Source: Candidatus Micrarchaeota archaeon
Lineage (GTDB): Archaea > Micrarchaeota > Micrarchaeia > Anstonellales > Bilamarchaeaceae
Length of the DNA: 50,152 bases
Direction of reading: 5' to 3'
NCBI GenBank assembly: GCA_032123335.1
Contig: JAQBFN010000042.1
Span: forward strand, 1 to 50,152
Shown here: positions 11,087-42,270 of the stretch, piece after piece
Layout of the letters: every line of letters starts with the position of its first letter
Numbering within the stretch: position 1 is the first letter of the stretch
The notes under the pieces: generated by a model
What the model was told of the DNA's origin: nothing
Seen by the model: the letters and a program-made list of their open reading frames with translations, nothing else
The model's database searches: none
Made by a program: the position numbers and the translations under genes

Positions 11087-11222
11087 AGTCTAGTATATGT
11101 GTCAGATTATGTTTATAAACCTATTGTAAAGTTGTTCAATGGACCACAGGCAGGATTTTGGGGTTTTTTGCGGTGGTTTAATTTATAAATTATTGGTGAG
11201 AATAGACGGTTGAGGTGTGCAA

Positions 11223-12305: not shown

Positions 12306-13553
12306 TCAGTTTCTGGACCGGGAAAAGAGTGCTGCAAAAACAAATGCGAGAGAAAGGGTGATTAGGGGGCAGGGCTCGCTTTCATCCTGCGGGGGCGTGT
12401 ACTCCTCTTCAGGCTCCCCATTAGAGGGGGTTCCCTTTACTATTGTGTGCTCCCCGGTGAGGGTTGTGCCCTGGACAGATATCTGGTAGGGGATGCTGTG
12501 GGAAAACCCGGACTCAAGATCTCCTGTGCTGAGATGGTAAGTGAGGGTTTCAGAGCCCTGGGGAGGGATTGTGAGGATTCGGGTATCCCTGGGGAGAATA
12601 AATTCGGGCATTGAAAGTTCATATGTGGGGGTTACGTACTGGCCTGTGGGGTTGTAGACCACAACCTTCAGGTCATCACCATAAAGGACACTGTGGATGA
12701 AAAGGATCTCTTCAAAGGACTGTTTTTCTGAGGTTTTTACTGTAACCGTGCTGTTGAATATGAATCCCTTTCCCCTTGCAACAAGGATGTCATATACGCC
12801 GCTTTGGTCGTATGAGTAGCTGGCTACAATGTGCCTTGCATCAAGTGCGCCTACCTCGCGGAAAGTGGGGTCTACGGGGACCCAGTTGCCGCCAACCTTG
12901 ACTTCTGCCCATGCGTGTGGCTGCCAGTCGTCTGCGAACGCATAGCCTGAAACAAAGCGGGTTTCAAATCCAAGGGAGCGCACCATGGAAATAAAGAGGT
13001 GGCTGTAGCCTACGCAAACGCCGCGGGGATCCTGGAAAACGGAGGTTGCGGGTGCAGGGTCACCCCAAAAAGAGAGATCATAGCTTATGTATTCGTGGGT
13101 CCAGTCTGCAAGTGCAGCAATTACTTCCAGCTCGGTTTCTTTTTCAGCGGAGAGGGATTTTGCAGCGGAAGAGATTGCATCATCCGGGTTGATGAGCCCT
13201 GTGCTCTCCATTTCGTGGGGCTCAAAAGGGGCGTTGGACTGGATGGTGATGGGATAGGATGAGCGGACGAGGGCAGTTGCTGTGATTATTTTTCCCCCGG
13301 TGAATTCCTCATCGTTGAAGATCACCCGGATTGTGCCATTGCTGTTTTCGAATTCTGCACCATCATCAGTCAGGTTTATCTGGAGGATTTTCTGGTGCTC
13401 ATTCTCAATGAGGAATGTGCCGTTGAGAGTTACATCTGTAATTGTTTCATTTGTGAAAAGGTACCAGGTTTTTTCTATCTCGACAACCACTTCTCCTGCG
13501 GAGAATGAGAATAATGGAAGGATAAAAAGTAAAATAAGGAAAAAGATTCTCAT
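12306..13553 (-). CDS. Secreted transglutaminase-like domain protein with C-terminal membrane anchor
   Basis: Signal peptide; GVCVGYSHLF, HAWAEV and WVPVDPT give a Cys-His-Asp triad; C-terminal hydrophobic tail. Confidence 0.88.
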   Translation of the reverse strand: MRIFFLILLFILPLFSFSAGEVVVEIEKTWYLFTNETITDVTLNGTFLIENEHQKILQINLTDDGAEFENSNGTIRVIFNDEEFTGGKIITATALVRSSYPITIQSNAPFEPHEMESTGLINPDDAISSAAKSLSAEKETELEVIAALADWTHEYISYDLSFWGDPAPATSVFQDPRGVCVGYSHLFISMVRSLGFETRFVSGYAFADDWQPHAWAEVKVGGNWVPVDPTFREVGALDARHIVASYSYDQSGVYDILVARGKGFIFNSTVTVKTSEKQSFEEILFIHSVLYGDDLKVVVYNPTGQYVTPTYELSMPEFILPRDTRILTIPPQGSETLTYHLSTGDLESGFSHSIPYQISVQGTTLTGEHTIVKGTPSNGEPEEEYTPPQDESEPCPLITLSLAFVFAALFSRSRN

Positions 13554-15874
13554 GCCTTTAATCGCCTCACGTGCTCCATGCGGCGCTTTATGAGGTCTTT
13601 GGTTCCGATGTCTTTCCTGTGCCAGAGCGGGCCCTTTACAAAAGACATTGCATCCTCAGCTGCCTTTTCTGCGTCCTCAAGCGTTTCTGCCTGGGCAACA
13701 AGAGCGGCTGTCCTGGAGGTGGTTGTGTAAACCGTCCCGTCCTTTTCATATACTGAGCCGAAATAGAGTTTAGTTCCTGTGTTCCAAAGGCCTTCTTTAT
13801 CTATGGAAATGGGCTGGTCGGCTTTGCCCTCGGTGGGGTAGCCTTCGGGAACGAGATACTTTACAACTGTGCAGTTGTTGCTGAAGCTGACGGGGATGAG
13901 CTTTCCTTCAGCCATTGAAAGGAAAACCTCTGAAAGCTGGGTTTTGAGAAGGGCAAGGACGTTCATTGCCTCGGGGTCTCCGAACCTTGCGTTGAATTCA
14001 ATTACCTTTATGCCGTTTTTTGTGAGCATGAACTGGCCATAGAGGATGCCCGTGAATGGGTTGCCTTCATTTTTCATTTCGGCCAGGGTTTTCTGCATTA
14101 TGCCCTTGGCTTCTTCCAGGTCTTTTTGCTCAAGGAATGGGAGGAGCTTGCCCGTGGAATAGCTTCCCATGCCCCCAGTATTTCCACATATGGCTACTCT
14201 TAGGTTCCTTCTAACAATTATGAAACCTGTAGAAACGGTGACACAACCAATATATCCTGAGTATTCGTAAGTGTGGATGTCCTTTTTACGAATAGATGTT
14301 TTTTGTTTTTTGTTTATTTCGATGGAATATACTGGTCTTGCTCGATATTCTTTGCCAGTTAGAGGACTAATCATTTTTTTTCGTTTATCGATTGTAACAA
14401 CCCCCACCTTTCCAATTTTTAGGATTAGTTCTTGAATACCGCCAATCAGTTGTTTTGAGTTTGTGTGGAACCGCATCTGCCCCCGATGAGTGCTCCCGTC
14501 TCCTAAATGGAATGTCTTGAGGAAACGTAGGATTTGTTCCTGTTTAGAATTTTTAATATAATCAGGCACGAATTTCTCATAGGATTTACCAAATCCACTC
14601 AAACATTCCATCAGTTGCCCTGAATTAATTCGGAACTTGTTGTCATTGTAGCTAACTTCAAATGGAAGTTTTTCTAGGATGTTTTTCATCTTTGAAAAGT
14701 TTTTGGATTTTTTAGTTTGGCAAATATAGGCCCGCTTTCCACCTGATTTAGAATTAGAAACATATCCTTCGGATAGAAATAAACCTAAAAATTCTATCCA
14801 ATCATCAAATTTTATTTTAATGGATTTGCTCTTTGGACCATATCGATTAGTGGATTTGGGCAGCGTAAAATATTTTCTTGAGGTGCCAATCCAATTGCCT
14901 GTTTGAGGAATGAATTTTTCCCCTTTCCAATTCTGAGCTTCAATAACTTGGAATTTGGAGTTTTTCCCCTTTCGGTTTTCCACCAACATTCTGTGATTAG
15001 GAGTGACAAGCAAGTCAATTTCTCGGTGTTTAAAATTAATCATTTTGCCTCGGTATTTTTTCCAATAAATCTCTTTTGGCTTCTCAAACCTTATTCTTTT
15101 GAATCTGGGCTGGAATATTGCAACAACATCTGTTTTTTTCAGGGCACCGAAGGTTTTCCAACCCTCAGTCGTAAGTATTTCCGTATCTTCTGAATAACAA
15201 TTCGGGCCGGAATCTCCTTCGAATGCGCGCTTGTGGTCCTGGACGGGGGGCATGAGCGCGAGGCTTGTGCCGTCGCAGAATGCCTGGAGGGTGAATTCCT
15301 CCCCATCCAATCGCTCCTCAATAAGCACGTTGCCGTCTTTTTCTATGAGCTCGGAGCAGTAATCAAGGATTTCCTGGTCGGATTTGAGGTGCTCGCCGGA
15401 AATTTTTACGCCTTTCCCCCCAGTAAGGCCAAGGGGCTTGATTGCAACATTCCCGATTTCGGAAATTGCTTCCTTTGCCTCATCAAGAGAGGATGCGATT
15501 TTGATTGCGGGGCATCCGGGGATTTCCTTTGTGCGCATGAGGTTGCGCGCATATCCTTTGTCCCATTCAATCATTGCGGCTTTTTTGAGGGGGGAGGCGC
15601 AGGGGATGCCCAAATCCGCGAAAGTGTCGGTTACTCCCTGGGCAAGAAGGCCATCGGGGCTTACAAATGCAACATCTATTCCCTTGGATTTTGCCCACTG
15701 GCCGACTACGGAAGAATCGGAGGGGTCATGGATAAGGAACTCCTCGGAAAGGGAGGCAATGCCCGGGTGCTTCTTGGGCATTATCGAATATAATGATGCG
15801 CTCTTTGAAAGCTGCTCGGCAATTATGTGCTCCCTGGCGCCTGTGCCTACAAGCAAAACTTTCATGTCAGTCAC
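13550..15874 (-). CDS. purD: Phosphoribosylamine-glycine ligase interrupted by an intein
   Basis: VLLVGTGAREH, IKPLGLTGGKGV, QDHKRAFEGD, GPN|TGGMG split by a 340-aa insert, EFNARFGDPE. Confidence 0.96.
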   Translation of the reverse strand: MTDMKVLLVGTGAREHIIAEQLSKSASLYSIMPKKHPGIASLSEEFLIHDPSDSSVVGQWAKSKGIDVAFVSPDGLLAQGVTDTFADLGIPCASPLKKAAMIEWDKGYARNLMRTKEIPGCPAIKIASSLDEAKEAISEIGNVAIKPLGLTGGKGVKISGEHLKSDQEILDYCSELIEKDGNVLIEERLDGEEFTLQAFCDGTSLALMPPVQDHKRAFEGDSGPNCYSEDTEILTTEGWKTFGALKKTDVVAIFQPRFKRIRFEKPKEIYWKKYRGKMINFKHREIDLLVTPNHRMLVENRKGKNSKFQVIEAQNWKGEKFIPQTGNWIGTSRKYFTLPKSTNRYGPKSKSIKIKFDDWIEFLGLFLSEGYVSNSKSGGKRAYICQTKKSKNFSKMKNILEKLPFEVSYNDNKFRINSGQLMECLSGFGKSYEKFVPDYIKNSKQEQILRFLKTFHLGDGSTHRGQMRFHTNSKQLIGGIQELILKIGKVGVVTIDKRKKMISPLTGKEYRARPVYSIEINKKQKTSIRKKDIHTYEYSGYIGCVTVSTGFIIVRRNLRVAICGNTGGMGSYSTGKLLPFLEQKDLEEAKGIMQKTLAEMKNEGNPFTGILYGQFMLTKNGIKVIEFNARFGDPEAMNVLALLKTQLSEVFLSMAEGKLIPVSFSNNCTVVKYLVPEGYPTEGKADQPISIDKEGLWNTGTKLYFGSVYEKDGTVYTTTSRTAALVAQAETLEDAEKAAEDAMSFVKGPLWHRKDIGTKDLIKRRMEHVRRLKA
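14180..15199 (-). mobile_element. 340-aa intein with LAGLIDADG homing endonuclease inside purD
   Basis: Starts with Cys (CYSEDTEILT), block B TPNH, two LAGLIDADG-like helices (FLGLFLSEG, FLKTFHLGDG), ends ...VAICGN before extein Thr; segment is visibly more AT-rich than its flanks. Confidence 0.93.
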
Positions 15875-21054: not shown

Positions 21055-21070
21055 TGTAACCATGGTTACA
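21055..21070. promoter_or_regulatory. Palindrome TGTAACCATGGTTACA, copy 1 (followed by CAA on + strand)
   Basis: Exact sequence; 13 nt upstream of a TTATAAA box in front of purF. Function inferred. Confidence 0.75.
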
Positions 21071-21126: not shown

Positions 21127-22518
21127 ATGTATGAGAAAAAAGAAGAGTGCGGCGTAGTGGCCGTTATCTCAAAAAACAAGAAGCCCGTGGCACCGCTTGT
21201 TTACCGGGGAATGCTTGGAGTCCAGCACAGGGGGCAGGATGCTGCAGGCATGGTTCTGTATGATGGCTCGTTCTACAAGAAAAAGGGGATGGGGCTTGTT
21301 TCTGAAATAATTGGTGATGAGGATACGGAACAGCAGCACTGGGCAGGGATTGCCCATACCCGCTACCCGACCACTGCAACTGCAACGATAAAGGATGTTC
21401 AGCCCTCCGTTTCAGGAAGCCTCGCTGTTGCGCACAATGGGCACATAGCGAATTATGGGGAGCTGCGCAAGGAGCTTGAAGAAAAAAAGTATGTGTTTGA
21501 AGGGACCGTTGATTCTGAGGCCATCCTTTACCTGCTTACGGATAAAATGCGGGAGGGTGCTTCCATAAAGGAAGCGGTGCTGTACACCATGGAGAAGTTG
21601 GATGGAGCTTACTCCGTGGTTGGGATTTACGACAGGAAACTGTTTATTTTCAGGGATCCGCATGCAATCCGCCCGCTTGTTTATGGGGAAAATGAGGAAT
21701 GTTTCATGTTTTGCTCTGAGTCAACCGGCCTTGACATGAATGGAATTCCCTATGTGGGCTCTGTGAACGCGGGGGAACTGATAATCGTTGAGGAGAATGG
21801 GGGGAGAACCAGTGAGATTCTGTTGGATATGGGAGCAAGGCACTGTATGTTTGAGTATGTTTACTTCTCAAGGCCGGATTCGGTGATAAACGACCGGCTC
21901 GTTGAGCAGGTGAGGAAGGAACTCGGGAAGCAGCTGGCCGTGGAAGCTCCTGTAGAAGCGGATTTGGTAATACCTGTTCCGGATACTGCAAGGAGTGCGG
22001 CCCTGGGTTTTGCACGGGCAACCGGAATTGAATATACTGAAGGGATAATCAAAAACCGCTATGTGGGAAGGACATTCATCATGCCTGACCAGGAAAGCAG
22101 GATAAAGGCAGTGCGGCTGAAGGTTAACCCGATAAGGAAGGTCATTGAAGGGAAACGGATCGTTGTTTTTGACGATAGTATTGTGCGTGGAACCACAATA
22201 AAAGAAGTGATGAAACTGTTGAGGGCGTGCAAGCCAAAGGAAATTCACCTCAGGATAACCTGCCCCCCGATAATTTCACCCTGTTTCTATGGGGTAGATA
22301 TGCCTACATTTGAGGAGTTAATTGCAAACAACAAAAACGTTGAAGAGATACGGGAATATTTGGGGGTAGATAGCCTCCACTACATATCCTTGGAGGGGTT
22401 GAAGAAGGTTGTGGGGGAGAAAAGCTGCCTTGCGTGTGTAACTGGGGACTACGTAACTGCTGCTGCAGAAAAGGAAGCAAAAAAACGGAGGAATCCAAAT
22501 GGCTGTCATAAATGTTGA
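21127..22518 (+). CDS. purF: Amidophosphoribosyltransferase
   Basis: EECGVV N-terminal nucleophile Cys after a short propeptide, QHRGQDAAG, HNGHIAN, CMFEYVYFSRPDS, VFDDSIVRGTT, Fe-S cysteines. Confidence 0.98.
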   Translation: MYEKKEECGVVAVISKNKKPVAPLVYRGMLGVQHRGQDAAGMVLYDGSFYKKKGMGLVSEIIGDEDTEQQHWAGIAHTRYPTTATATIKDVQPSVSGSLAVAHNGHIANYGELRKELEEKKYVFEGTVDSEAILYLLTDKMREGASIKEAVLYTMEKLDGAYSVVGIYDRKLFIFRDPHAIRPLVYGENEECFMFCSESTGLDMNGIPYVGSVNAGELIIVEENGGRTSEILLDMGARHCMFEYVYFSRPDSVINDRLVEQVRKELGKQLAVEAPVEADLVIPVPDTARSAALGFARATGIEYTEGIIKNRYVGRTFIMPDQESRIKAVRLKVNPIRKVIEGKRIVVFDDSIVRGTTIKEVMKLLRACKPKEIHLRITCPPIISPCFYGVDMPTFEELIANNKNVEEIREYLGVDSLHYISLEGLKKVVGEKSCLACVTGDYVTAAAEKEAKKRRNPNGCHKC

Positions 22519-24058
22519 TTTCAAAAAGCTGGAAAAAATGTGTGGGCATAGTGAAAAGAAAATTATAGATTGCCTTACTAATATTGGAATGCCGGTTGAA
22601 CCTGGGGAAGATGGCGGCTTGGTTGTTGAAGTTACGCCTAACAGGCCGGATTTGTTTTGTGTTGAGGGGATTTCAAGGGCAGTTCGCTCATATTATGATA
22701 ATGTTTTGCCGGAGTATAACGCAAAAAAATCAGAATACGTGCTTTCTGTTTCCCCAAAAACAGCAAACGTGCGGCCAGCAATCTGCGCAGCAGTAGTTAA
22801 GGGCCTTGAAATTGATGATGAATTGCTTCTGGACCTGATGCAGATGCAGGAAAAGCTGCATGACACGATTGGGCGGAAAAGAAAAAAGATTGCCGTTGGG
22901 ATTCATGATTTAGATAGGATTTCTGGGAAAATGGAGTATGTTGTTGCTTCCGATGAAAAATTTGTCCCGCTTGAAATGAAAGGGGAGGTGGATGTGTGGG
23001 GTGTGTTGAAGACGCACCCTAAGGGAATTGCCTTTGCACATTTGGTGGAAAAAGAAGCCGTTGTGATAAAAGATGTTGAGGGGATTATTTCCTTCCCACC
23101 CATAATAAACAGCGAACGGACGAGGGTGACCACAGAAACAAAAAATCTGTTTATAGACTCCACCGGAACCTCTGTTGAGGGGGTGAAAAAGGCGGTGAAC
23201 ATTATTGCAACTGCGCTTGCTGACAGGGGTGGGGAAGTGTATATTGTGAAGGTTGGGGATAGGAACTGCCCTGATTTTTCATACTCAAGTGTGAAAATTA
23301 ACCTCAAGGAAGCAAACCGGGTTCTTGGTTTGGAGTTAAGTGAAAAGGAAGCAGGAGATGCGCTCATGCGCATGGGTATTGGTGTGGATAAAGGTTTCGC
23401 CCGTGTGCCTCCATACCGTGCAGATGTTATTTCATTTACAGATATCCTGGAGGATATTGCAATCGGGCATGGGTATGAAAAAGTTGAGCCCACCCTCCCA
23501 ATGATTTCCACTGTTGGGGGTGGGAGTGAGGAAGAGGAACCAATCCATGATACCCTTACTGGAATGGGTTTCATGGAAATAAAAAATTACATTCTTACCA
23601 ATATGGAAAAACTCGAGGCGACGGGCAGGGGAAATGGTGCGCTTGGGATAAAAAATTCTGCATCTGAGGAATTTACTTACCTAAGAACAAGCCTGATCCC
23701 GGGAATTTTGGGCTGTTTTTCAACCAATAAGATGAGGGGCCTTCCGCAGATGTACTATGAGTTTGGGGAAGTGTATAATGAACGGGAATACAAAACAATT
23801 TGTTTTGGGTTAATGGGTGAGGGTGTTTCAATAACTGACTTGCAGCCCCACCTGCAAACACTGGTAAAGGAATTGGGGGGTATTTTGGTTTTAGAAGAAA
23901 CTGTGGATGCCTGTTTCATCAAAGGAAGGTGCGCAAAAATATTGGTTGGGGATAAGGAAATCGGGGTTATTGGCTCTGTGCACCCAGCAGTTTTGCAGAA
24001 ATTTGGCCTTGAGCACGCAGTTGTGCTTTGTGAAGTGAAGAAAGCTGGTTTGTTTTGA
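22499..24058 (+). CDS. pheT: Phenylalanine-tRNA ligase beta subunit (archaeal type)
   Basis: EVTPNRPDL, QEKLHDTIGRKRKKIAVGIHDLD, VPPYRADV...EDIAIGHGY, LRTSLIPG. Confidence 0.96.
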   Translation: MAVINVDFKKLEKMCGHSEKKIIDCLTNIGMPVEPGEDGGLVVEVTPNRPDLFCVEGISRAVRSYYDNVLPEYNAKKSEYVLSVSPKTANVRPAICAAVVKGLEIDDELLLDLMQMQEKLHDTIGRKRKKIAVGIHDLDRISGKMEYVVASDEKFVPLEMKGEVDVWGVLKTHPKGIAFAHLVEKEAVVIKDVEGIISFPPIINSERTRVTTETKNLFIDSTGTSVEGVKKAVNIIATALADRGGEVYIVKVGDRNCPDFSYSSVKINLKEANRVLGLELSEKEAGDALMRMGIGVDKGFARVPPYRADVISFTDILEDIAIGHGYEKVEPTLPMISTVGGGSEEEEPIHDTLTGMGFMEIKNYILTNMEKLEATGRGNGALGIKNSASEEFTYLRTSLIPGILGCFSTNKMRGLPQMYYEFGEVYNEREYKTICFGLMGEGVSITDLQPHLQTLVKELGGILVLEETVDACFIKGRCAKILVGDKEIGVIGSVHPAVLQKFGLEHAVVLCEVKKAGLF

Positions 24059-24077
24059 GGGGGGCGCGGGACCCCCC
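24059..24077. terminator. G6/C6 hairpin between convergent pheT and the 77-aa gene
   Basis: GGGGGG-CGCGGGA-CCCCCC immediately after the pheT stop; role inferred. Confidence 0.4.
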
Positions 24078-24084
24078 ATTTCCA

Positions 24085-24318
24085 CTATTCAAGCTCTTCG
24101 ATTGAGTTGGTTCGTATTTTATAGGCCACAACAAATTTATTAAAATCCTTGAAGAAACCATCCAGAATACGTTCCATGTCATCCGGTGCAACTAATACAG
24201 ATTTGGTCTTCCAAAAATATTGGTTATATCCGTTTTTGTTTAAATGATAATAAAAATTACGTTTAAGTCTGTTGTACTCTTGTACTGTTGATTTTAGATC
24301 ATATATATATACTAACAT
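24085..24318 (-). CDS. 77-aa Cas2/VapD-like ferredoxin-fold protein without CRISPR context
   Basis: LVYIYD strand with Asp, helix EYNRLKRNFYYHL, KTKSVL (cf. Cas2 VQxSVF), second helix, terminal strand; AT-rich gene. Confidence 0.55.
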   Translation of the reverse strand: MLVYIYDLKSTVQEYNRLKRNFYYHLNKNGYNQYFWKTKSVLVAPDDMERILDGFFKDFNKFVVAYKIRTNSIEELE

Positions 24319-24322
24319 ATCA

Positions 24323-24338
24323 TGTAACCATGGTTACA
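24323..24338. promoter_or_regulatory. Palindrome TGTAACCATGGTTACA, copy 2 (at the skew switch, 4 nt upstream of the 77-aa gene ATG)
   Basis: Exact sequence; extends to 18 bp (ATGTAACCATGGTTACAT); can be read as 11-6-11 ATATCATGTAA-CCATGG-TTACATATGTT (24317-24344). Confidence 0.75.
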
Positions 24339-24433
24339 TATGTTTTTAATTTTAACATTTGCGGAAAAGTAAGCCGAATAGTGGAAATGCACCCCCCTCA
24401 CTCTTTTAAACCGACTGAAGCATATTCAAAACA

Positions 24434-25915
24434 ATGAAGCTCCAGCCGAGGGAATACCAGCAAAACATCATAGAATCCATCCAAACCAATGGAAACACTT
24501 TAGTAGTTCTTCCAACGGGTTTGGGAAAAACCCTCATCGCCCTTAGCCTAATGGAAAAAACACCTGGAAAATGCCTTTTTCTCACTCCTACGAAACCACT
24601 GGCTAAACAACACGTTGAGACAATTGCAAATGTTTTAGGGAACGTGGTGGGGGGGTCGGTTTTGGTAACTGGGGAGACCACCCCAAAAAAGCGCGCTGGG
24701 CTCTATACTAACAGGGTGATCTCATCAACACCCCAAACAATACGAAATGACATAAACAAGGGAATTTTTCCAAAAGAGGAGGTTTCCCTTGTTGTTTTTG
24801 ATGAGGCCCATCGTGCGGTTGGGGACTATGCATATGTGCAGATAGCCAAAAAGCTTCCCGAAACGGCCAAAATCATCGCCCTCACAGCATCACCAGGGGG
24901 GGACAGGGCCAAGATAATGGAGGTGCTTGCAAACCTCAAAATAACCAATATAGAAATTAGGGCCTCCACTGACCCAGATGTTTCCCCATATGTAAAAAAG
25001 ATGAATTATAACTGGATTCCTGTCGAACTTAGTAATGAATACGCAGAAGCGCAGGCAATCCTTTCAACATACATCAAGAAACAAGTTGAACTCCTGAAGA
25101 ATCGGGGGATTCGCCCACAAATCCTCTCCAAACGGGCATTTCTTGCCCTGAGGCCCAAAATACTCAAGATAAAACACCCAACGAAATATCACCTGATCTA
25201 TCTGTACACCTGTCTGCTGCATACCCTGCACCTGCAGGAACTGCTTGAAACACAGGGAAAGGTCCCTGTTTTTAAATATCTTGAGAAACTCTCAAAATCT
25301 GATTCCAAATCAGCAAAAACAGTTAGCAACAGCACAGAAATAAGGAAAATCATGCAATTGTTGGAATCTTCAGATGACCACCCCAAAATGGAGAAGCTCT
25401 TTTCATTGCTTTCTACACTAAAGGGGAAGAAGCTGATAATTTTTGTGCAGTATAGGGACCAGATAACTGAAATCGTTTCTAAACTTGCCAAACAAGGGCA
25501 CACAGCACGCCCATTTATGGGCAAGAGGGACAATTTCACTAAAAAAATGCAGGAGGAAACCATGGACTCGTTCCGGGTGGGGGAGTTTGATGTGCTTGTT
25601 GCCAGCTCAATTGGTGAGGAGGGGCTGGACATCCCGGAAGTGGACTCAGTTATCTTCTACGAGCCAATCCCAAGTGAGATACGTTCTATCCAGCGCAGGG
25701 GCAGGGCAGGAAGGCTCAAGGAAGGCTCAGTTTATGTCCTCATGACAAAGGCCACAAGGGACGAGCATTATTTTTGGGCATCAAAAAAACGAGAGAAGAA
25801 AATGAAAGAGGTTTTGCTTTCCTTCCAGGAAAAATTCCACTCAGGGAAACCACTGAATCCAAAGCAAAAAAAGAAAAACACCTGGCAGAATACCTTAACT
25901 GAATTCATGGAATGA
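24434..25915 (+). CDS. Hef/FANCM-type SF2 helicase lacking the ERCC4 nuclease domain
   Basis: PREYQ, LPTGLGKT, FDEAH, LTASPG, EEGLDIPEVD, IQRRGRAGR; C-terminal PIP-like QNTLTEF. Confidence 0.92.
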   Translation: MKLQPREYQQNIIESIQTNGNTLVVLPTGLGKTLIALSLMEKTPGKCLFLTPTKPLAKQHVETIANVLGNVVGGSVLVTGETTPKKRAGLYTNRVISSTPQTIRNDINKGIFPKEEVSLVVFDEAHRAVGDYAYVQIAKKLPETAKIIALTASPGGDRAKIMEVLANLKITNIEIRASTDPDVSPYVKKMNYNWIPVELSNEYAEAQAILSTYIKKQVELLKNRGIRPQILSKRAFLALRPKILKIKHPTKYHLIYLYTCLLHTLHLQELLETQGKVPVFKYLEKLSKSDSKSAKTVSNSTEIRKIMQLLESSDDHPKMEKLFSLLSTLKGKKLIIFVQYRDQITEIVSKLAKQGHTARPFMGKRDNFTKKMQEETMDSFRVGEFDVLVASSIGEEGLDIPEVDSVIFYEPIPSEIRSIQRRGRAGRLKEGSVYVLMTKATRDEHYFWASKKREKKMKEVLLSFQEKFHSGKPLNPKQKKKNTWQNTLTEFME

Positions 25916-25916
25916 A

Positions 25917-28900
25917 CTAAATCTCCCGCTTAAGGCTCTTATACTTCTTTTCCTTTCCAGGCTTTTTGGGAAGCAGGTCTTTGGGGATATGGTCCCGTAG
26001 CAGGTATAGCGCAATTATCCCAAGCACAAGGAGCCCGGTGATTGCCAGCACAAGCAGGCCGTCCTGCTTCCTTTCAAAGGTTTGCAGCCTGCGGATTCCA
26101 TCCTCCAAGCTATTTATCGCGCGGGCGTATTCCCCCTTCCCTGCGTACATCCTGGCATTCTGTATCGCAGCGTTAACAAAGGCCGCATCTGTTTCTTCCA
26201 TCTCATCCTTTACTTCAGAATACAGGCTTTCAACATTCTCTTCCATTCGTTTTTCTTCATCTTCCAATAGCTTGATGGTGCCTTCCATCTCATCCACCAA
26301 CACATCAATATCTTCTATGGCGCCCTGGGGGTCGGTGGAGCCAGAAGCCTCTTTGAGCAGTTTACTGACTTCATTGGGTTTCATGGGGAATAGCCCTTCC
26401 AAGTGTGTTTCATCTGCCTCTTCATACTCCCTGGTGTAGGTTCCCAATAAATCGTAAGCACCATCTAACCTACTTTCCAATATTGCATTGTTTGTGGTAT
26501 CTGAGGCTGCAGCATTCTCCTTCAATTGCACCAGGGCATCCTCCGCCATTGAGATTGCGTAGAATGCACTCATGGCATCTTCGAAATCAAGGCTCCCTGA
26601 GAATTTGCTGTTTTTCTGTTCTATTTCTTCTACAGCCATTTCAACATCCTTATCCCCCACACCTGTTTCTGCCCAACTCTCTTTCACTTCCTTTTCCAGC
26701 TTCAGCAGTTCTTTTGAGATTTTTGTAAGCTCCCGTTTTTCCCAACCCATATCAAAACTTTCAAGGGGCCCGATAAGTGCCCCTGGCTCTACGCCTGTTT
26801 CCAAAGCGACAGTTAACTCCTCTAATCTAGAATCCATTTCCCTAACGAAGAGGTTGTCCAGCCCAAGCTCATGCGCCAGAGCTGTTGCTGCTCCAAGTGC
26901 ATCAACTTTCTCTTTAATCTGTTCCTTTAGTTTTTCATGTTTTTCCAGAACCTTGCTTTGTGTTTTTTCCCGGTTCTCCACAACACTCCTGAGCTCTTCC
27001 AGTTTTTGGTATGCCCCAATGTCCTCATCCATCAACAGGTGGTTTTTTGCTTCAGAGAGTATGGCTTCTTCTTCCGCAGTGAGGTTTTGCCCCGAATAGT
27101 AAATGACCTGCTGGTTCATGTACTCATCCAGGTCACTTATCTGGTATGTGACCCTTACTTTCGTTTCTTTTCCCTCAACCAGGCCATGGACTTTGAAGAA
27201 GACTGTGCTTTCCCCCATTGTTTTTTTGTCTGTTATCTTCTCCCCGGTATATCCAAACACATCTAATTTACTCAGGTCTTTTCCCTCTTCTATGCTGGAA
27301 TACGCTATGTAATCCAAATCCCTATTTGGTTCAAAATTGAAGAACAGCTCCACTTTGGTGGTTTGCCCGAGTGTGCTCATGAATGAAACAATCCGTTCCA
27401 CTTCATATGCATCATAATCATATGTTTCTATTTCGATTGTGTGGGCACCTTCTGCCAAGTTCATTGGGATTCCTGCACCGGCACTTTCTACCCTCAACCC
27501 ATTTACCAATATTTTATCTGATTCAAACTCTTCCCCCAAAATGAGCCCATCAACAGCACATTCACAATTTAGTTTAAGGGTCTGGGTTACTGTGGCCCCG
27601 CCTTCGCTATCCCCAAACGCAACCTCACCATAGTCCTTTGTTCTGCAGACCACCTCTTCTTTTTTGAATTCCAGGTGCACTGTTTCTCCTGCGCTTATCC
27701 CCATAAGGTAAATCGCTATCTTTCCCTTGGTTGGGGTTACCATGCGCACGCTATCGGTCCCATATACCACATCAATTTTCCTGAATTCAAAATCAGTTGA
27801 AACCTCTACTACGACATCTTCTGCAGAAAACTTGGTTGGATTGGTTACATCCACATACAAGTACACACCACTAGGTTCATCCAATACAGCTATCTCCCAA
27901 CTATGTTTTTCATCTACTATAATCGAACTCTCCACCAGGAGAATTTTCCTTCCCCACAGTTCCCCCTCTATTTCATCATATGCTTCGGACATCTCTTTCA
28001 ATTGTCCAAGTGCGCATGAGTAATCCAAGGAATCACCAGAATAACATTCCTCCAGCTGAAACCAACTTTCAAGGAAACCAAACGGCGCTCCCCCCAAAGA
28101 GAGATCTGATTTAAGCATTGCCCGTTTTTCCGGAAGGTATCCATATCTGTGCTCTGCTTTTTCCAGGATGCTTTCTTCAATATTCTCAATAATCTCAACG
28201 TAATTGGCAGGCCTTATGCTGTCTATCAGTTCCTTTTGTGCCCGTTCAGAGTGTGTATCTATTCCATCTGTTTCTGCATCTTTAAGGAAGCCGTCCAACC
28301 ACACCAGCTCCGCATCCAGGTATGCTTCAATGACCCCCTCCCCTTCTTTAGCAGCTTCAGTTGCCATGTTTGCATATTTGATGCATTTTCCATAGTTCTC
28401 AAATCTTCCCCCGAGCGTTCCCCCACCATCACCAGCCTTGCATGCAGAGCCAGCAGTTTCAAGCCGTTCCTTCCCGAGCGTCCCCATCTCAGTTTCCAAT
28501 TCCTTGGAAGTTTCAAGGTTTTCCCAGGCCTCTTCACCGTATTCCTCCACCACAGCCCCAGCCTCTTCAATAATTACGCTCTGTAGGATCAAGTCATACC
28601 CAGCAATTGCATTCCCACTGCCCAAGATGCAGTCTTTCAGCCATTTACTGTTTCCTTCATTAGCATTTTTGGCTTCTGCGTATGACTCATCAGCAACTTT
28701 CATCACATCTAAAATCTCTTCATAGGTTCCTTTTACGCCGAGGGCGCCGCTATTCCCCTTCCCATATGAACTCAAATAAATCTCATCCAGTTCCTCTTTC
28801 TGGATTTCTGAAAACTTCTTTTCTGCATCACCCTTCCGTTCCCCTGCATCTGCCCAGCTGTCTTCGCACAAATCCACAGTTTCATTATATGCGGTTTCAA

Positions 28901-29594
28901 TTCCCTGGACCTTTACTTCAAGTGCTGCAATTGCATCCCAGTGCTCGTGCATGCAGCCATAATACCAGGTAAATCTTGGGACGTCCTCCCATATTCCAGA
29001 GTACTCGCAGTTAACATCTTCCAGGGGCATTTCACAGTATTGGATGCTCCCCCCGATGTAATCATCATCACAGACGCCCGCATAGGCGATTTTTTCCTTC
29101 CATATTCCGAATTCAGATCGTTTTTCGTTAACGATTTTTGCATAACTTTCAAGTGAAAGAAGGGAGTGTTCAGAGCAGTTCTGCCAATTACCAGGATAGT
29201 TCCAGACGTCCCATCCGTGTTTCACAGGAATGAGGTCCTCCACAGAAATGCGGATCTCCCCAGCATGCTCCTTCCAGATGATTGCCTCTTTGATGTTCCC
29301 GTCGGTTGCCCCAACTTCCCCCAACTCTCCATCTATCCTTTCTAATTCAAGTTCTTCAAGGCTTTCTTGGAAATCAGGTATGGTTTGGTTTAGGGCACTT
29401 TCCATAAATTTATGCTCATCCGCTATCTGGGAACCGCTGGTGTCCAAGAAGAGGATGTTGAAGAAGCCGTATGCGTAAGGATTTTCCTCCACCCAGGTCT
29501 CATTTTCCCACGGCCTGGGATATTGCTCACTCGCGGCATAAGAGATACTTATTATCCCTACCAAAACAAATAGAATTAGGAATCGAGTTTCCAT
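25917..29594 (-). CDS. 1225-aa acidic type I membrane surface protein
   Basis: Signal peptide, Cys-containing helical N-terminal region, beta-rich middle, long coiled-coil stalk, C-terminal TM helix and basic tail. Confidence 0.75.
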   Translation of the reverse strand: METRFLILFVLVGIISISYAASEQYPRPWENETWVEENPYAYGFFNILFLDTSGSQIADEHKFMESALNQTIPDFQESLEELELERIDGELGEVGATDGNIKEAIIWKEHAGEIRISVEDLIPVKHGWDVWNYPGNWQNCSEHSLLSLESYAKIVNEKRSEFGIWKEKIAYAGVCDDDYIGGSIQYCEMPLEDVNCEYSGIWEDVPRFTWYYGCMHEHWDAIAALEVKVQGIETAYNETVDLCEDSWADAGERKGDAEKKFSEIQKEELDEIYLSSYGKGNSGALGVKGTYEEILDVMKVADESYAEAKNANEGNSKWLKDCILGSGNAIAGYDLILQSVIIEEAGAVVEEYGEEAWENLETSKELETEMGTLGKERLETAGSACKAGDGGGTLGGRFENYGKCIKYANMATEAAKEGEGVIEAYLDAELVWLDGFLKDAETDGIDTHSERAQKELIDSIRPANYVEIIENIEESILEKAEHRYGYLPEKRAMLKSDLSLGGAPFGFLESWFQLEECYSGDSLDYSCALGQLKEMSEAYDEIEGELWGRKILLVESSIIVDEKHSWEIAVLDEPSGVYLYVDVTNPTKFSAEDVVVEVSTDFEFRKIDVVYGTDSVRMVTPTKGKIAIYLMGISAGETVHLEFKKEEVVCRTKDYGEVAFGDSEGGATVTQTLKLNCECAVDGLILGEEFESDKILVNGLRVESAGAGIPMNLAEGAHTIEIETYDYDAYEVERIVSFMSTLGQTTKVELFFNFEPNRDLDYIAYSSIEEGKDLSKLDVFGYTGEKITDKKTMGESTVFFKVHGLVEGKETKVRVTYQISDLDEYMNQQVIYYSGQNLTAEEEAILSEAKNHLLMDEDIGAYQKLEELRSVVENREKTQSKVLEKHEKLKEQIKEKVDALGAATALAHELGLDNLFVREMDSRLEELTVALETGVEPGALIGPLESFDMGWEKRELTKISKELLKLEKEVKESWAETGVGDKDVEMAVEEIEQKNSKFSGSLDFEDAMSAFYAISMAEDALVQLKENAAASDTTNNAILESRLDGAYDLLGTYTREYEEADETHLEGLFPMKPNEVSKLLKEASGSTDPQGAIEDIDVLVDEMEGTIKLLEDEEKRMEENVESLYSEVKDEMEETDAAFVNAAIQNARMYAGKGEYARAINSLEDGIRRLQTFERKQDGLLVLAITGLLVLGIIALYLLRDHIPKDLLPKKPGKEKKYKSLKREI

Positions 29595-32175: not shown

Positions 32176-32955
32176 TCACCACTCCTGTTCTATGTAAGAG
32201 ACTGCATTTCTGAAGAGCGACAGCCCGCGGCCGGTTGAGCCTATTCCCCCTGCCCAGCAGGGGTGATTGGTCCTATGGTTATATGCTTCCGGATGAGGCA
32301 TAAGGCCGAAAATCTGGCCGCTCTTGTCGCATATGCCCGCTATGTTCATAACTGAGCCATTGGGGTTCCAGGGATACTTGCCCAGCCCTCCCCTGTCATC
32401 CACATACTGCATCACATGCAGTTCCTTCCCGGTTATCTCATTAAGGATTTCTTTGGTTGCCGGTATGAACCTCCCTTCCCCATGCCGTACGGGGAGGTCA
32501 ATCTCTGCGAGTTCCCTGGTGAATATGCACGGGGATTTCTGGTTTACGAGAAGCTTGACCCACCTGTCCTCAAATTTCCCGGATTCGTTGTAAGTTATTG
32601 TAACCTTCTGCTCAAAATCAGGTTCAGGGAGAAGGCCCATTTTCACAAGCACCTGGAACCCATTGCATATTCCCAACACGAGCTTTCCCTGGCTTATGAA
32701 ATCAAGAAGCTTTCCGCCTGCTTTGTACCTTAATCTATTGGAAAGCACTTTTCCAGAGCCAATATCGTCCCCAAAAGAGAACCCCCCCGGGATTACCAGG
32801 AAGTTATATTTGTCCAGGAGGGAAGGATTTTCCAGTATTTCGCTTGCATGCTTTATTTCAGCATTTCCCCCAACTGCAGTTATTGCATATGCAGTTTCAA
32901 CGGGGCAATTTATCCCATACCCATTAAGCACCAGCGCATTTGTTTTTCCTACCAT
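32176..32955 (-). CDS. purQ: FGAM synthase glutaminase subunit
   Basis: GYGINC, PGGFSFGDD, GICNGFQ, HGEG, IAGI, GLMPHPE catalytic triad. Confidence 0.97.
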   Translation of the reverse strand: MVGKTNALVLNGYGINCPVETAYAITAVGGNAEIKHASEILENPSLLDKYNFLVIPGGFSFGDDIGSGKVLSNRLRYKAGGKLLDFISQGKLVLGICNGFQVLVKMGLLPEPDFEQKVTITYNESGKFEDRWVKLLVNQKSPCIFTRELAEIDLPVRHGEGRFIPATKEILNEITGKELHVMQYVDDRGGLGKYPWNPNGSVMNIAGICDKSGQIFGLMPHPEAYNHRTNHPCWAGGIGSTGRGLSLFRNAVSYIEQEW

Positions 32956-35864: not shown

Positions 35865-35935
35865 TAATCCCACCAATGTTGCGTTTACTCTGCGCCTAAA
35901 TTTATAATATTGCGTGCGCGCGTTCGCAGGTTTTG

Positions 35936-35951
35936 TGTAACCATGGTTACA
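35936..35951. promoter_or_regulatory. Palindrome TGTAACCATGGTTACA, copy 3 (followed by CAA on - strand)
   Basis: Exact sequence; upstream of the purL TATA box (35901-35907); overlaps the nreA stop codon. Confidence 0.75.
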
Positions 35952-37203
35952 TAAACTCAAGCAAATTCTTCTGCCCTATAACCCGGCTGCGCTTTGTGTA
36001 ATCAGAAACAGGCAGTCTCAGCCTTCCCGCAACCTCATCCACCGCCTCTTTCACTGAAGAATACATCTGCGGGTTCTCCATAGCATCCCGTGCGTTTTCC
36101 CTTACCTGGAAAACCCCCACAGGAACCTGGTATCCTTCATAAACCTCCCTTATCGCAACAACCCTTCCCTGCCTCCGTATCCTTTCCAGGAATTCCAGCA
36201 CAGCCAGCCTTACTGCATAATACGCCCCTGCCTGGGACACTGCATATTTGCTCCTTCCGTGAAATGGTTCGTACTCTCCACTTACTCTTGCTTCGCTCCC
36301 CACCAGGTTCCAGATTGTTTTCGGGCACCAGGCCTCAAAATTCTCAAATTCCCATGCTCCCGGGATAACCAGTATTTCATAATGGTTCGAGAAGGATTCG
36401 TGGCTGAAAACCCACACCTTGTTTAGCTGCTTGTATTCCCTCACCCTTTCCATAAGGTGCTTTCCCAGCATATCGTCGGTTGTGGTTATGCTCCACCGCG
36501 TAGGCACCATAATCCGGTTTTCAAGAACCCCCAGCTTCCCCACAGAAAGCACGTTTGTAATGTAGTAGTTGTCCAGCCCCCTGCCATACAGCTCAATGGC
36601 AGTATCCCTCGCCTTCCTTCCCTCTTCAATCAGCTCATCCACTTTCTTGGGTATCTTTGGGTTGTCGCATATCCTCACCCTCCTCATTGGTGCAGATGCC
36701 CCAGTGGGCTGGACAACCGAAGAAAACCTCATATCATACCTTGGCTTCCTTGAAAAATTGATTTCAATATCTACGGGTTTTACTGAAAGGGCAGCTTCCT
36801 GTGTTTCCTCCACGCTCCGTTTGTGGGGCCGTATCCCCCCAAACCTCCGTCCCTTTACCATCGCTGCCCGGTATTCAATGACTTTGTCATATCCCTCTTC
36901 GTAAATGTCCCGCATCCCTTTGTGGGTTTCCAGCGAAAGCACGGGCCCCCAGGAGACATTCGGGTAATTCGATGACCCCACAAATGCTTCGTTTGAAGCC
37001 CCAAACACATCCTGCTTTATTTCCCCGCTGAACCTGTGCTGAGCTTGTATCTTCTTCAAAACCGGGCAGTAGCCAAGGCCGCACAGGTTCTTGGTTCCTT
37101 TGCAGGTTACGCAATAATTATCAGGCTTCATTTCCCGCTCCCGCTTCCTTTTCGGTTTCCAGCTTAAAATATCTTTCAGCCCAGGTTTCCGGTGAGGGGA
37201 CAT
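35947..37203 (-). CDS. nreA: Archaeal DNA repair protein NreA
   Basis: CxxCKG..LCG..YCP zinc site, FGAS..FVG..NYP, VPTRWSITTTDD, YYAVRLAVLE.L, C-terminal PIP box QKNLLEF. Start could be 37131. Confidence 0.9.
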   Translation of the reverse strand: MSPHRKPGLKDILSWKPKRKREREMKPDNYCVTCKGTKNLCGLGYCPVLKKIQAQHRFSGEIKQDVFGASNEAFVGSSNYPNVSWGPVLSLETHKGMRDIYEEGYDKVIEYRAAMVKGRRFGGIRPHKRSVEETQEAALSVKPVDIEINFSRKPRYDMRFSSVVQPTGASAPMRRVRICDNPKIPKKVDELIEEGRKARDTAIELYGRGLDNYYITNVLSVGKLGVLENRIMVPTRWSITTTDDMLGKHLMERVREYKQLNKVWVFSHESFSNHYEILVIPGAWEFENFEAWCPKTIWNLVGSEARVSGEYEPFHGRSKYAVSQAGAYYAVRLAVLEFLERIRRQGRVVAIREVYEGYQVPVGVFQVRENARDAMENPQMYSSVKEAVDEVAGRLRLPVSDYTKRSRVIGQKNLLEFM

Positions 37204-37293
37204 ATCTAAATAAAACCCTTTGCCTCGCCCCACTTCAAAAACCTTTAAATACCTGATTTACCCCTAATTAGATCTACTCCTATGGTGGTCCTG

Positions 37294-40953: not shown

Positions 40954-40969
40954 TGTAACCATGGTTACA
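40954..40969. promoter_or_regulatory. Palindrome TGTAACCATGGTTACA, copy 4 (followed by CAA on - strand)
   Basis: Exact sequence in the divergent acdB/beta-CASP intergenic region; shares 22 bp (TTTGTGTAACCATGGTTACATA) with copy 3. Confidence 0.75.
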
Positions 40970-41022: not shown

Positions 41023-42270
41023 ATGAGAATCAAGTGCCTAGGGGCCGGCCAGGAGGTGGGCAGAAGCTGTTTCATGGTAGAAACAGACCAGCGCACCCTC
41101 TTTGATTACGGCCTTAAAATCCACTCAACCCATAAAGCAACCAAGCAGGAAATGACTCCCTTCCCTTACCAGGAGAACATAGATGCAATGATTCTTTCCC
41201 ATGCCCACCTGGACCACAGCGGCTTCATACCCGAACTGTACACTCGCCCACCGGTCCATTGGTTCGGCACCCCGCCCACAAGGGAAATCGCTTCCCTTCT
41301 CTGGGCAGACTCCCTCAAGATAATGGGTGAGGATGCACCTTACCAGGAAATGCACATCAACCGCGCAGAGAACAGGTATACTCCTTTGGTTTATGAGCAG
41401 ACCCTGGCCCTTGGGAAAACAGACTACTCATTGCATGATGCAGGCCACATCCTTGGCTCAGCCATGATAAAGGCAAAATACCAAGGCAAAACCCTCCTTT
41501 ACTCCGGAGATTTCAAGAAAAGCGACACACGCATGCACAAAGGCGCGATTACCCCGGATGATGTGGATTACCTGATTCTTGAAAGCACCTACAGCAACCG
41601 GGAGCACCCCGAAAGGGAAGATTCTGAAAAGCAGCTAATCCACAAAATAGAGGAAACAATCGATGAAGGCGGCTCAGTTCTGCTCCCTGCATTTGCAGTA
41701 GGCCGCTCCCAGGAACTAATCTCCATCCTGCATGCCAACCTGCGCGGAATCCCCATATTCCTGGATGGAATGTCCAAGGCAGTAACCAACATGTACCTCA
41801 ACCACGATGACTACATAAAGGACCCAAAAACCTTCAGAGAGGCCGCCCATGAGACAATATTTGTAGGAAGTTCAAGGGACCGCAGGGATGCTACAAACGA
41901 GCCCAGCGTAATTGTTTCCACCGCAGGGATGATGGATGGCGGCCCGGCTTTAAGCTACCTCCAAAACCTCAGCCCCAACTCCAAACTTATCTTCACAGGA
42001 TACAATGTTGAAGGCACAAACGGATGGAGAATCCTCAACCAAAATAAGGTCATGATAGATGGCTATGAACTGGATGTTTCAGTCCCTGCAGAATACCTTG
42101 ATTTCAGTGCCCACGTTGGCCGCACAGGCCTGATTGATTTCGTAAAGAAAACCAACCCTGAAAAAGTAATCCTCAACCACGGAGACAACACCATTGCATT
42201 TGCAAACGAGCTCATCCACATGGGCTTTGATGCAGTTGCCCCTGCAAATGGGGACGTTATCGAGCTCTAA
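41023..42270 (+). CDS. Metallo-beta-lactamase beta-CASP ribonuclease (aCPSF2-like)
   Basis: GAGQEVGRSC, SHAHLDHSG, AGHILGSA, YSGDF, ESTYS, PAFAVGRSQE, FSAH, NHG. Confidence 0.9.
   Translation: MRIKCLGAGQEVGRSCFMVETDQRTLFDYGLKIHSTHKATKQEMTPFPYQENIDAMILSHAHLDHSGFIPELYTRPPVHWFGTPPTREIASLLWADSLKIMGEDAPYQEMHINRAENRYTPLVYEQTLALGKTDYSLHDAGHILGSAMIKAKYQGKTLLYSGDFKKSDTRMHKGAITPDDVDYLILESTYSNREHPEREDSEKQLIHKIEETIDEGGSVLLPAFAVGRSQELISILHANLRGIPIFLDGMSKAVTNMYLNHDDYIKDPKTFREAAHETIFVGSSRDRRDATNEPSVIVSTAGMMDGGPALSYLQNLSPNSKLIFTGYNVEGTNGWRILNQNKVMIDGYELDVSVPAEYLDFSAHVGRTGLIDFVKKTNPEKVILNHGDNTIAFANELIHMGFDAVAPANGDVIEL

Follow-up and report, generated by a model that had tools for sequence, protein, structure and literature searches.

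A Cas2-fold gene and a conserved palindrome within a putative chromosomal replication origin of Micrarchaeota

We analysed a stretch of 50,152 nt, referred to here as the window, from contig JAQBFN010000042.1 of a 1.04-Mb Candidatus Micrarchaeota archaeon genome (GCA_032123335.1), and within it a minus-strand gene encoding a 77-AA protein with a predicted Cas2-like fold. The gene belongs to a conserved family, starts four nucleotides from a perfect palindrome, and lies together with this palindrome between two inverted elements that resemble the origin recognition boxes (ORBs) of archaeal replication origins. The ORB-flanked module coincides with a switch of GC skew, and the protein and the palindrome share their distribution across the phylum. 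We infer that the module acts as a replication origin, that Orc1 would bind its ORB-like elements, and that the 77-AA protein would recognise the palindrome. The Cas2-fold protein from this putative origin is the best candidate for an origin- and promoter-binding regulator, and we give this explanation as a whole a probability of roughly 0.55.

The 77-AA gene and its predicted fold

A first-pass annotation, made from the sequence without database searches, had pointed to an AT-rich 77-AA gene four nucleotides from a copy of the palindrome, and both the gene and its spacing were confirmed (Table 1). The GC content of the gene is 30% vs. 48% for the window, and the 250-bp stretch of lowest GC in the window begins within it, at 24111. 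Its product has 18 close homologs of 47–91% identity, every one of them 77–79 AA long, and differences among the orthologs at codon positions 1/2/3 amount to 1744/1029/3331; on these two grounds the open reading frame (ORF) is a real gene under purifying selection. The family profile detected exactly one copy in 54 of 61 relatives and in 38 of the 40 genera of the order, and the protein was present in further families of the class and in 101 of 251 genomes sampled evenly across the phylum. Within a large clade of Micrarchaeota, the gene is part of the core genome, in a single copy. An exhaustive search of 1.84 billion representative proteins with the family hidden Markov model (HMM) returned 71 clusters only, nearly all of 75–100 AA, indicative of a small, clade-restricted family apart from canonical Cas2.

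Among 98 family members, positions Y4, D7, K19, R20, F22, Y23, Y24, S40, F56, and K67 are conserved in at least 90%, and N16, K39, E49, D53, and Y66 in more than 80%. The protein is small and basic, and its helix 1 presents a conserved N-x-x-K-R-x-x-Y-Y face (N16, K19, R20, Y23, Y24). One family member (G020, L024 on contig C1) lies within an open frame of 143 AA, the N-terminal extension of which is A-rich and lysine-rich and could be real or come from a mis-set start; in this genome the palindrome and ORB are found ~150–215 nt upstream of the conserved domain.

AlphaFold2 modelling from the family alignment gave a beta-alpha-beta-beta-alpha-beta structure with a predicted local distance difference test (pLDDT) value of 94.2. 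In Foldseek searches of the PDB, Cas2 chains led the matches (probability 0.9–0.99, TM-score 0.5–0.64, E 4e-3 to 0.1); the top match was the Cas2 structure 5g4d, with 28% identity and E 4e-3, and VapD was found lower down. The earlier assignment to a Cas2/VapD-like fold was in this way supported by the monomer model, but sequence profiles did not confirm it. Pfam and NCBIfam searches with the 77-AA protein gave no match at E ≤ 10, the family HMM gave no match among PDB sequences, and hhalign comparison with 30 genuine Micrarchaeota Cas2 proteins yielded a probability of 2.9% (P 0.016). With all of these results negative or weak, membership of Cas2 at the sequence level was rejected. The hhalign alignment itself is in register, pairing D7 with Cas2 D8, N16 with N15, K19 with K18, and S40 with S31; D7, the Asp that closes strand 1, is present in 94% of the 98 members.

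Like the 77-AA protein, members of the Cas2/VapD superfamily (PF09827) are proteins of ~80 AA with a beta-alpha-beta-beta-alpha-beta ferredoxin fold. Shared with Cas2 are also a hydrophobic strand 1 ending in Y-D, a basic helix 1, a K-S-V hairpin, and a last strand with Y-K. The gene had been described as an orphan, and this was borne out: no CRISPR-like array was found in the window and no other tandem repeats near the gene, and the genome contains no Cas1 or Cas2 Pfam match, a search with PF09827 (CRISPR_Cas2) returning nothing at E ≤ 1. Among the relatives, cas1 occurs in 13 of 61 and never beside the 77-AA gene, and a genuine cas2 adjoins cas1 in G006. Unlike Cas2, the family gives no significant profile match and has no connection with cas1 or CRISPR; it is small and stands by itself, and its gene is a single-copy core gene and not part of a defence island. 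Unlike Cas2 genes, too, the 77-AA gene has a conserved putative operator and sits in an origin-like module. When a VapXD-type arrangement was looked for, no conserved partner ORF was detected, the flanks being pheT or a peptidase M17 gene on one side and a helicase gene on the other. The 77-AA protein is Micrarchaeota-specific and unlinked to CRISPR, with a Cas2-like ferredoxin fold as modelled.

ORB-like elements and GC skew at the locus

The 13-mer GAATAGTGGAAAT occurs three times in the 1.04-Mb genome, and two of these copies form an inverted pair, 285 bp apart, around the gene and its promoter. Between the two cores the GC content is 30.5%, the lowest in the window, vs. 47.8% for the window as a whole. 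The C-run of the GC-rich inverted repeat that follows pheT is, when read on the opposite strand, the G-string of the left ORB. Rfam searches gave no match near threshold in the region. The ORB-like pair is kept in most genera, as GGGGGTGyrT-TTCCACTAWT upstream and AWTAGTGGAArT-N0-3-GGGGGGTC downstream. A nine-base core, AGTGGAAAT, together with the G-string, is common to the module elements and the ORBs of Pyrococcus furiosus, in which ORB1 and ORB2 read CCCCCAGAGTTTCATTTCCACTGGAA (PMC1904270). The general ORB consensus consists of TCCA-GAAAC followed by GGGGT (PMC4164010), and the minimal functional oriC1 of Haloarcula hispanica has inverted ORBs with distal G-strings and an AT-rich centre (PMC3936714).

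The module resembles the oriC1-type origins of Sulfolobus, Pyrococcus, and Haloarcula in its inverted repeats with the core AGTGGAA(A/G)T followed by GGGGG(T), its AT-rich centre, its position at a nucleotide-skew extreme, and the recurrence of its motif at the orc1 promoter. It is unlike them in its distance from orc1/cdc6 (19–240 kb from the 77-AA gene in the nine genomes with both on one contig), in having two ORBs only, and in its inverted skew polarity. It is also unlike them in that a perfect 16–18-bp palindrome forms its centre and, in most lineages, a protein-coding gene occupies one arm. These last two features, the central perfect palindrome and the protein-coding gene within the ORB pair, are novelties that we have not seen described. 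On sequence grounds the module conforms to the definition of an archaeal origin except for orc1 adjacency.

The same core (ATTTCCACTAATC / TTCCACTATT) was also found directly upstream of the orc1/cdc6 start in two genera, in the window's genome (contig C28, 3043–3055) and in the complete genome G021 (960,039). This single ORB-like core at the start codon suggests autoregulation of Orc1. The orc1 gene itself seems not to lie at an origin, since its surroundings lack both a second ORB and an AT-rich region.

Gene and module are separated in genus g35. In G049 and G059, the gene is located elsewhere, in a row of aEF-1beta, Cas2-fold, and Rad50-like genes, with no palindrome and no ORB. The sole palindrome of these genomes is part of a gene-free module, which is bordered by the 3′ end of a PRC-barrel gene and by a tRNA and reads C-string, TTCCACTATT, T-rich stretch, palindrome, A-rich stretch, AATAGCGGAA, and G-string; the left C-string and right G-string arrangement is like that of H. 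hispanica oriC1. In G099 both ORB cores have changed in concert, to TTCCGGTA and TACCGGAA (also given as TTCCGGTAAT and ACCGGAA), and exactly two palindromes are present, one in the gene-free module and one in the promoter of the relocated gene, between TATA and ATG. The relocated gene of G120 also keeps the palindrome at its ATG. Together, the sites in the g35 module and at the relocated genes indicate that the palindrome is a module element in its own right, which is also tied to the promoter of the gene. At the relocated position in G049 (L018, contig C1, 694–3529; also L023), the Cas2-fold gene stands between aEF-1beta and a gene for a 763-AA Rad50/SMC-like ATPase, with a gap of 10 nt to the latter, a neighbourhood that is a possible hint towards DNA repair or chromosome handling.

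Cumulative GC skew in the window reaches its maximum at ~24 kb, vs. a gene position of 24.1–24.3 kb. The corresponding positions are 94,940 for the maximum and 96,464 for the gene in G044, a member of another family, and 845,914 and 866,012 in G021 (1.57 Mb), the minimum of which is at 33 kb, half a genome off. In G059 the maximum (67,370) falls next to the palindrome (67,239) of the gene-free module, where gene ends converge, and no skew change is seen at the gene, at 268 kb. The maximum is thus 0.1–20 kb from the module in all four genomes, and, as G059 demonstrates, it is the module rather than the gene that marks the skew switch. The polarity of GC skew in G021, in contig C1 of both G044 and G059, and in the window is apparently inverted, as in haloarchaea.

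Haloarchaeal replication origins are found at skew maxima, that is, with inverted polarity (PMC1868953), and for this reason the polarity at the module cannot be read as in bacteria. In G021, gene orientation differs between the two sides (258+/317− to the left, 294+/264− to the right, p = 0.009) and is co-directional with replication from the module pole; the same test was not significant for the G044 contig and the window. The distance from orc1 in the same genome is 95 kb to the gene, 115 kb to the skew maximum, and ~640 kb to the minimum. Because of the ORB architecture, the core at the orc1 promoter, the proximity of orc1, and the gene orientation in G021, we consider with good confidence that the module is a chromosomal replication origin with inverted skew of the haloarchaeal type.

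The palindrome at the gene and at other promoters

The palindrome at 24323–24338 is the central element of the ORB-flanked module and spans the predicted transcription start of the gene. On the minus strand CGCAAAT is followed by the TATA-like GTTAAAATTAAAAAC, the palindrome, GAT, and the ATG. With promoter positions assigned by the usual archaeal TATA-to-start spacing, transcription is predicted to begin ~7–9 nt before the ATG, in the right half-site. In ~30 genera, (A/T)TGTAAC-N4-GTTACA(T/A) is found 0–35 nt ahead of the start of the 77-AA gene and downstream of a TATA-like box. Some variants of the site are symmetric, TGTGAC...GTCACA in L019 being one, which accords with a dimeric binder. 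Within each genome the four bases at the centre hardly vary, being CATG in g1 and g17 and TATA in g18, g20, and g31. The suggestion of the first-pass annotation that the small protein binds the palindrome and represses itself is upheld in outline by the position of the site between TATA and start in these genera and by its retention at the relocated gene of G099 and G120; the binding itself we infer.

Exact copies of the palindrome were found at four positions of the window (21055, 24323, 35936, and 40954), whereas shuffles gave 0.02 matches to the 18-bp form at ≤3 mismatches. The whole genome contains 12 exact copies, and no near-copy that differs at one or two positions. What had been taken for a 28-bp dif-like site is this multi-copy perfect palindrome. 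Copy number varies among lineages: many genomes have one palindrome, located at the 77-AA gene in most of those with coordinates listed, while 7–19 copies are present in several unrelated lineages (g1, g13, g17, g18, g20, g31, f15, and f18), with 8–19 in congeners of the window's genome. The proposed system of one gene and many sites accordingly fits some lineages and not others. The copies tend to be clustered near the 77-AA gene, with 4/12, 5/13, 4/9, and 4/12 sites within 2–30 kb. In L026 (G026, contig C12, 1524–3809), four TATA-centred palindromes are found in 2.3 kb around the 77-AA homolog, three of them upstream within 530 bp, which is local site amplification at an origin-like locus.

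The palindrome was present in 71 of the 101 protein-positive genomes of the phylum sample vs. 8 of the 150 protein-negative ones, a co-occurrence that also fits the first-pass suggestion of a palindrome-binding protein but is confounded by phylogeny. Of the eight protein-negative carriers, four come from families in which the protein is otherwise present. When the pattern was reversed as a control, it matched ~8% of genomes once.

In the window's genome, 10 of the 12 sites lie in intergenic regions upstream of genes and two between convergent gene ends. For nine pairings of a gene with a site, the palindrome is located 12–34 nt upstream of a TATA-like box, often at ~22 nt. The genes at these sites are purF, purS-L, purP, priL, hisS, a Fic gene, and a beta-CASP RNase gene, together with those for a glycosyltransferase of family 2 (GT2), a ferredoxin, and the helicase/Cas2-fold pair. 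Certain targets recur at sites in other genera, with purL and purF in G023, purL in L002, PCNA in G024 and G044, and nreA in G044; sites in G024 were also found at pheT and an Lrp-like gene. On its other side, the copy at 40954 faces a divergent ATP-grasp_5 gene.

Both convergent-end copies lie where there is no promoter. The first (contig C13, 12061–12076) is found between genes for an argH-like lyase and a 5-formyl-tetrahydrofolate (THF) cyclo-ligase and provides the TAA stop of both, and the second (contig C20, 12504) separates EF-2 from a methyltransferase-like gene convergent with it. On contig C46 (2410–2906), two palindromes 481 bp apart bracket a gene (2539–2772) for a 77-AA ribbon-helix-helix (RHH)-like protein of antitoxin type and face the GT2 glycosyltransferase and ferredoxin genes. 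The RHH-like protein was rejected as a palindrome binder, being present in 23 of 61 relatives, in 0–8 copies, and lacking in palindrome-rich congeners.

Proposed role, alternatives, and surrounding genes

In the proposed mechanism, Orc1/Cdc6 would occupy the two ORBs, the AT-rich centre would serve as the unwinding region, and a dimer of the Cas2-fold protein would bind the palindrome. When bound between TATA and the transcription start of its own gene, the protein would block the recruitment of RNA polymerase and give autorepression, which we propose because the palindrome has the classical position for a repressor acting in this way. Binding at this site would also put the protein at the centre of the origin. 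In lineages with 8–19 exact copies of the palindrome, protein bound 12–34 nt upstream of TATA could recruit or modulate TBP/TFB, with a putative regulon of purF, purL, and purP, of priL, PCNA, nreA, and the Hef-like helicase, and of some others. The fullest version of this model, in which the origin has three parts, a Cas2 fold has been exapted as origin and transcription factor, nucleotide supply is coupled to initiation, and archaeal origin recognition gains a second component, is tentative, and we rate it somewhat below an even chance.

If the rest of this scheme holds, binding of the palindrome by the Cas2-fold protein is the assignment that we lean towards. The protein is small and basic with a conserved helix 1 face, and its gene is the only one that tracks the site across the phylum, with the co-occurrence given above. 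In minimal genomes the sites are confined to the origin module and the gene's own promoter, and the other small DNA-binder candidate nearby, the RHH-like protein, is patchy and multi-copy; these points argue for the same assignment.

The logic would be that of several known systems in which a gene in or next to an origin has a palindromic operator in its promoter, a site used again at the origin and at further promoters. In the plasmids pSC101 and P1, Rep (RepA) acts on an inverted repeat on its own promoter beside the origin; CtrA of Caulobacter and DnaA have sites both at the origin and in a regulon; and papillomavirus E2 and EBNA1 bind as dimers to N4-spaced palindromes at origins. Unlike all of these, the 77-AA protein has an unrelated fold, as far as the comparisons made here go, and the host chromosome is archaeal and has an Orc1/Cdc6 initiator. 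Structural kinship to the E2 or EBNA1 domains was rejected, as none appeared in the Foldseek lists for the PDB or for BFVD/viral structures, which leaves an analogy of logic only.

Several observations weigh against the reading of the protein as an origin- and promoter-binding regulator. We know of no Cas2 fold that acts as a sequence-specific DNA binder, and the conservation above 90% of D7 and S40, the counterparts of the Cas2 Asp and Ser, suits a nuclease at least equally well. The phylogenetic confounding noted above limits the co-occurrence argument, and G021 has the gene and the right-hand ORB and lacks the TGTAAC palindrome. The relocated gene of G049 and G059, which has no palindrome, indicates that autoregulation is dispensable. 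As to the origin, the strand that bears the G-run of the upstream ORB in gene-containing modules is not the one that a true inverted repeat requires, orc1/cdc6 lies away from the module and, in the window's genome, on another contig, and by the convention of bacteria and Pyrococcus a cumulative GC-skew maximum denotes a terminus.

An alternative that has to be taken seriously, although we think it unlikely, accepts the origin but has the palindrome read by another DNA-binding protein, the Cas2-fold protein being the product of a regulated, origin-resident gene and serving as a Cas2/VapD-type nuclease or RNase in replication or repair, perhaps together with the Hef-like helicase or Rad50. D7 and S40 stand in register with D8 and S31 of Cas2, the best Foldseek matches are nucleases, the Hef-like neighbour is without the nuclease domain of Hef, the g35 gene lies directly upstream of a Rad50-like ATPase gene, and the palindrome persists at the origin without the gene in G049 and G059. 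A conserved Asp is, however, no proof of catalysis, because the catalytic residues of Cas2 are dispensable for its known biological role. Against the nuclease also stands that no second gene tracks the palindrome, the sole nearby candidate examined being the RHH-like one of 23 of 61 genomes, and that, where a genome has just one or two palindromes, these stand at the origin module and in the promoter of the gene, the pattern to be expected if an origin binder regulates itself.

Still less probable is a replication terminus, in which the palindromes would be Ter, matS, or dif-like sites and the small protein their binder. The skew maximum at the module in four genomes, if read by the bacterial and Pyrococcus convention, and the grouping of the palindromes around the locus would fit it, and, like Tus-Ter/RTP and Xer-dif, the locus combines a small site-specific system with a replication pole, tus and rtp being autoregulated genes beside their bound sites. 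The flanks, however, match Orc1-type ORBs with G-strings about an AT-rich centre, with a core at the orc1 promoter as well, orc1 in G021 is near the module pole and not the opposite one, the genes of G021 would be mostly head-on, and haloarchaea have origins at skew maxima. The analogy with Tus and RTP drawn in the first-pass annotation is not supported: Tus-Ter/RTP sites are asymmetric and polar and oppose each other around the terminus, and the sites here, being perfectly symmetric, have no polarity and would be unfit as polar fork traps; they are ORB-flanked in the module and multi-copy on many contigs, most of them upstream of TATA boxes. Unlike dif, a single-copy 28-bp terminus site with 11-bp arms on either side of a 6–8-bp spacer, the palindrome has neither Xer-type arms nor a spacer, occurs 12 times in the genome, and loses its conserved symmetry beyond 16–18 bp. 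The annotation's other proposal, a VapD-like toxin or RNase integrated at a dif-like site, here extended to a small mobile element bounded by terminal inverted repeats, could draw on the VapD-like fold and on the AT-rich gene between 12–13-bp inverted repeats, yet we reject it as highly improbable. The gene is single-copy and syntenic throughout 38 of the order's 40 genera and in other families of its class, evolves under purifying selection, and was found with no antitoxin-like partner, integrase, or transposase, and the presumed terminal repeats persist gene-free in g35 and recur at the orc1 promoter.

To our knowledge, the way in which replication is controlled in the wider DPANN group has been little explored, and we found no paper that deals with origins in Micrarchaeota or with Cas2-like proteins standing alone in DPANN. 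The ORB pairs, central palindrome, and inverted skew polarity described here give a concrete putative origin module for the whole clade, which is of use in curating genomes, in estimating growth rates from read depth, and in designing vectors, and the inverted polarity matters whenever DPANN genomes are oriented or checked by skew. If the Cas2-fold protein is indeed the palindrome binder, it would be the first Cas2-type fold to act as a site-specific regulator outside CRISPR and a second sequence-specific origin component besides Orc1/Cdc6. Initiation would then be tied directly to purine synthesis and replisome genes, in cells that rely on hosts for many metabolites. Such a protein would also bear on the ancestry of Cas2, as a housekeeping DNA-binding or nuclease module that was taken up by CRISPR, or the reverse. 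Even if it instead partners the Hef-like helicase as a nuclease, the retention of its gene within an origin would be unusual.

Table 1. Positions of the features in and around the ORB-flanked module and of other genes and palindrome copies in the window.
Feature	Position	Strand	Remarks
PCNA gene	11217-11966	+	
purD	13550-15874	-	
Palindrome copy	21055..21070	.	12 nt upstream of purF TATA box (purF 21127..22518 +); site also in G023
GC-rich inverted repeat G6-CGCGGGA-C6	24059..24077	.	Between pheT stop (24056-24058) and ORB core
Downstream ORB-like element	24072..24090	-	GAATAGTGGAAAT (24078-24090), then directly GGGGGG; inverted partner of 24376-24398
77-AA Cas2-fold gene	24085..24318	-	ORF; ATG at 24318-24316; TAG stop 24085-24087 within left ORB-like core
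Perfect palindrome TGTAACCATGGTTACA, 16 bp	24323-24338 (18 bp at 24322-24339)	.	Between TATA box and ATG, 4 nt from ATG
Predicted promoter of 77-AA gene	24343..24363	-	Transcription factor B recognition element (BRE)-like CGCAAAT(G) 24356-24363, then TATA-like TTAAAATTAAAAA 24343-24355; direct reading
Upstream ORB-like element	24376..24398	+	GAATAGTGGAAAT (24376-24388), GCA, C-run; core directed away from AT-rich centre
TATA-like box CTTTTAAACC of helicase gene	24403..24412	+	~25 nt before ATG; leaderless layout
Hef-like superfamily 2 (SF2) helicase gene	24434..25915	+	DEAD/ResIII/Helicase_C, no nuclease domain; conserved divergent neighbour
purQ and purS-L	32176-35865	-	
Palindrome copy	35936..35951	.	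Upstream of TATA box of purS-purL fusion (32949..~35865 -); at 3′ end of nreA (35947..37233 -)
nreA	35947-37233	-	
Palindrome copy	40954..40969	.	22 nt upstream of TATA box of beta-CASP RNase gene (41023..42270 +)

The helicase gene and the gene for a ~1230-AA protein beyond it are syntenic in distant relatives, with pheT or peptidase M17 as the other flank, and the TATA-to-ATG layout of the helicase gene is repeated in L001 and L002. In the window, the second of these genes (25917–29594, minus strand) encodes a protein of 1225 AA that has a signal-like segment at its N-terminus, continues in a long acidic body rich in coiled coil, and has a membrane anchor at its C-terminus. No Pfam domain was found in this protein; it stands beside the Hef-like helicase also in L001, L002, and G044. 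The 50-kb window as a whole is rich in replication, repair, and purine genes (Table 1).

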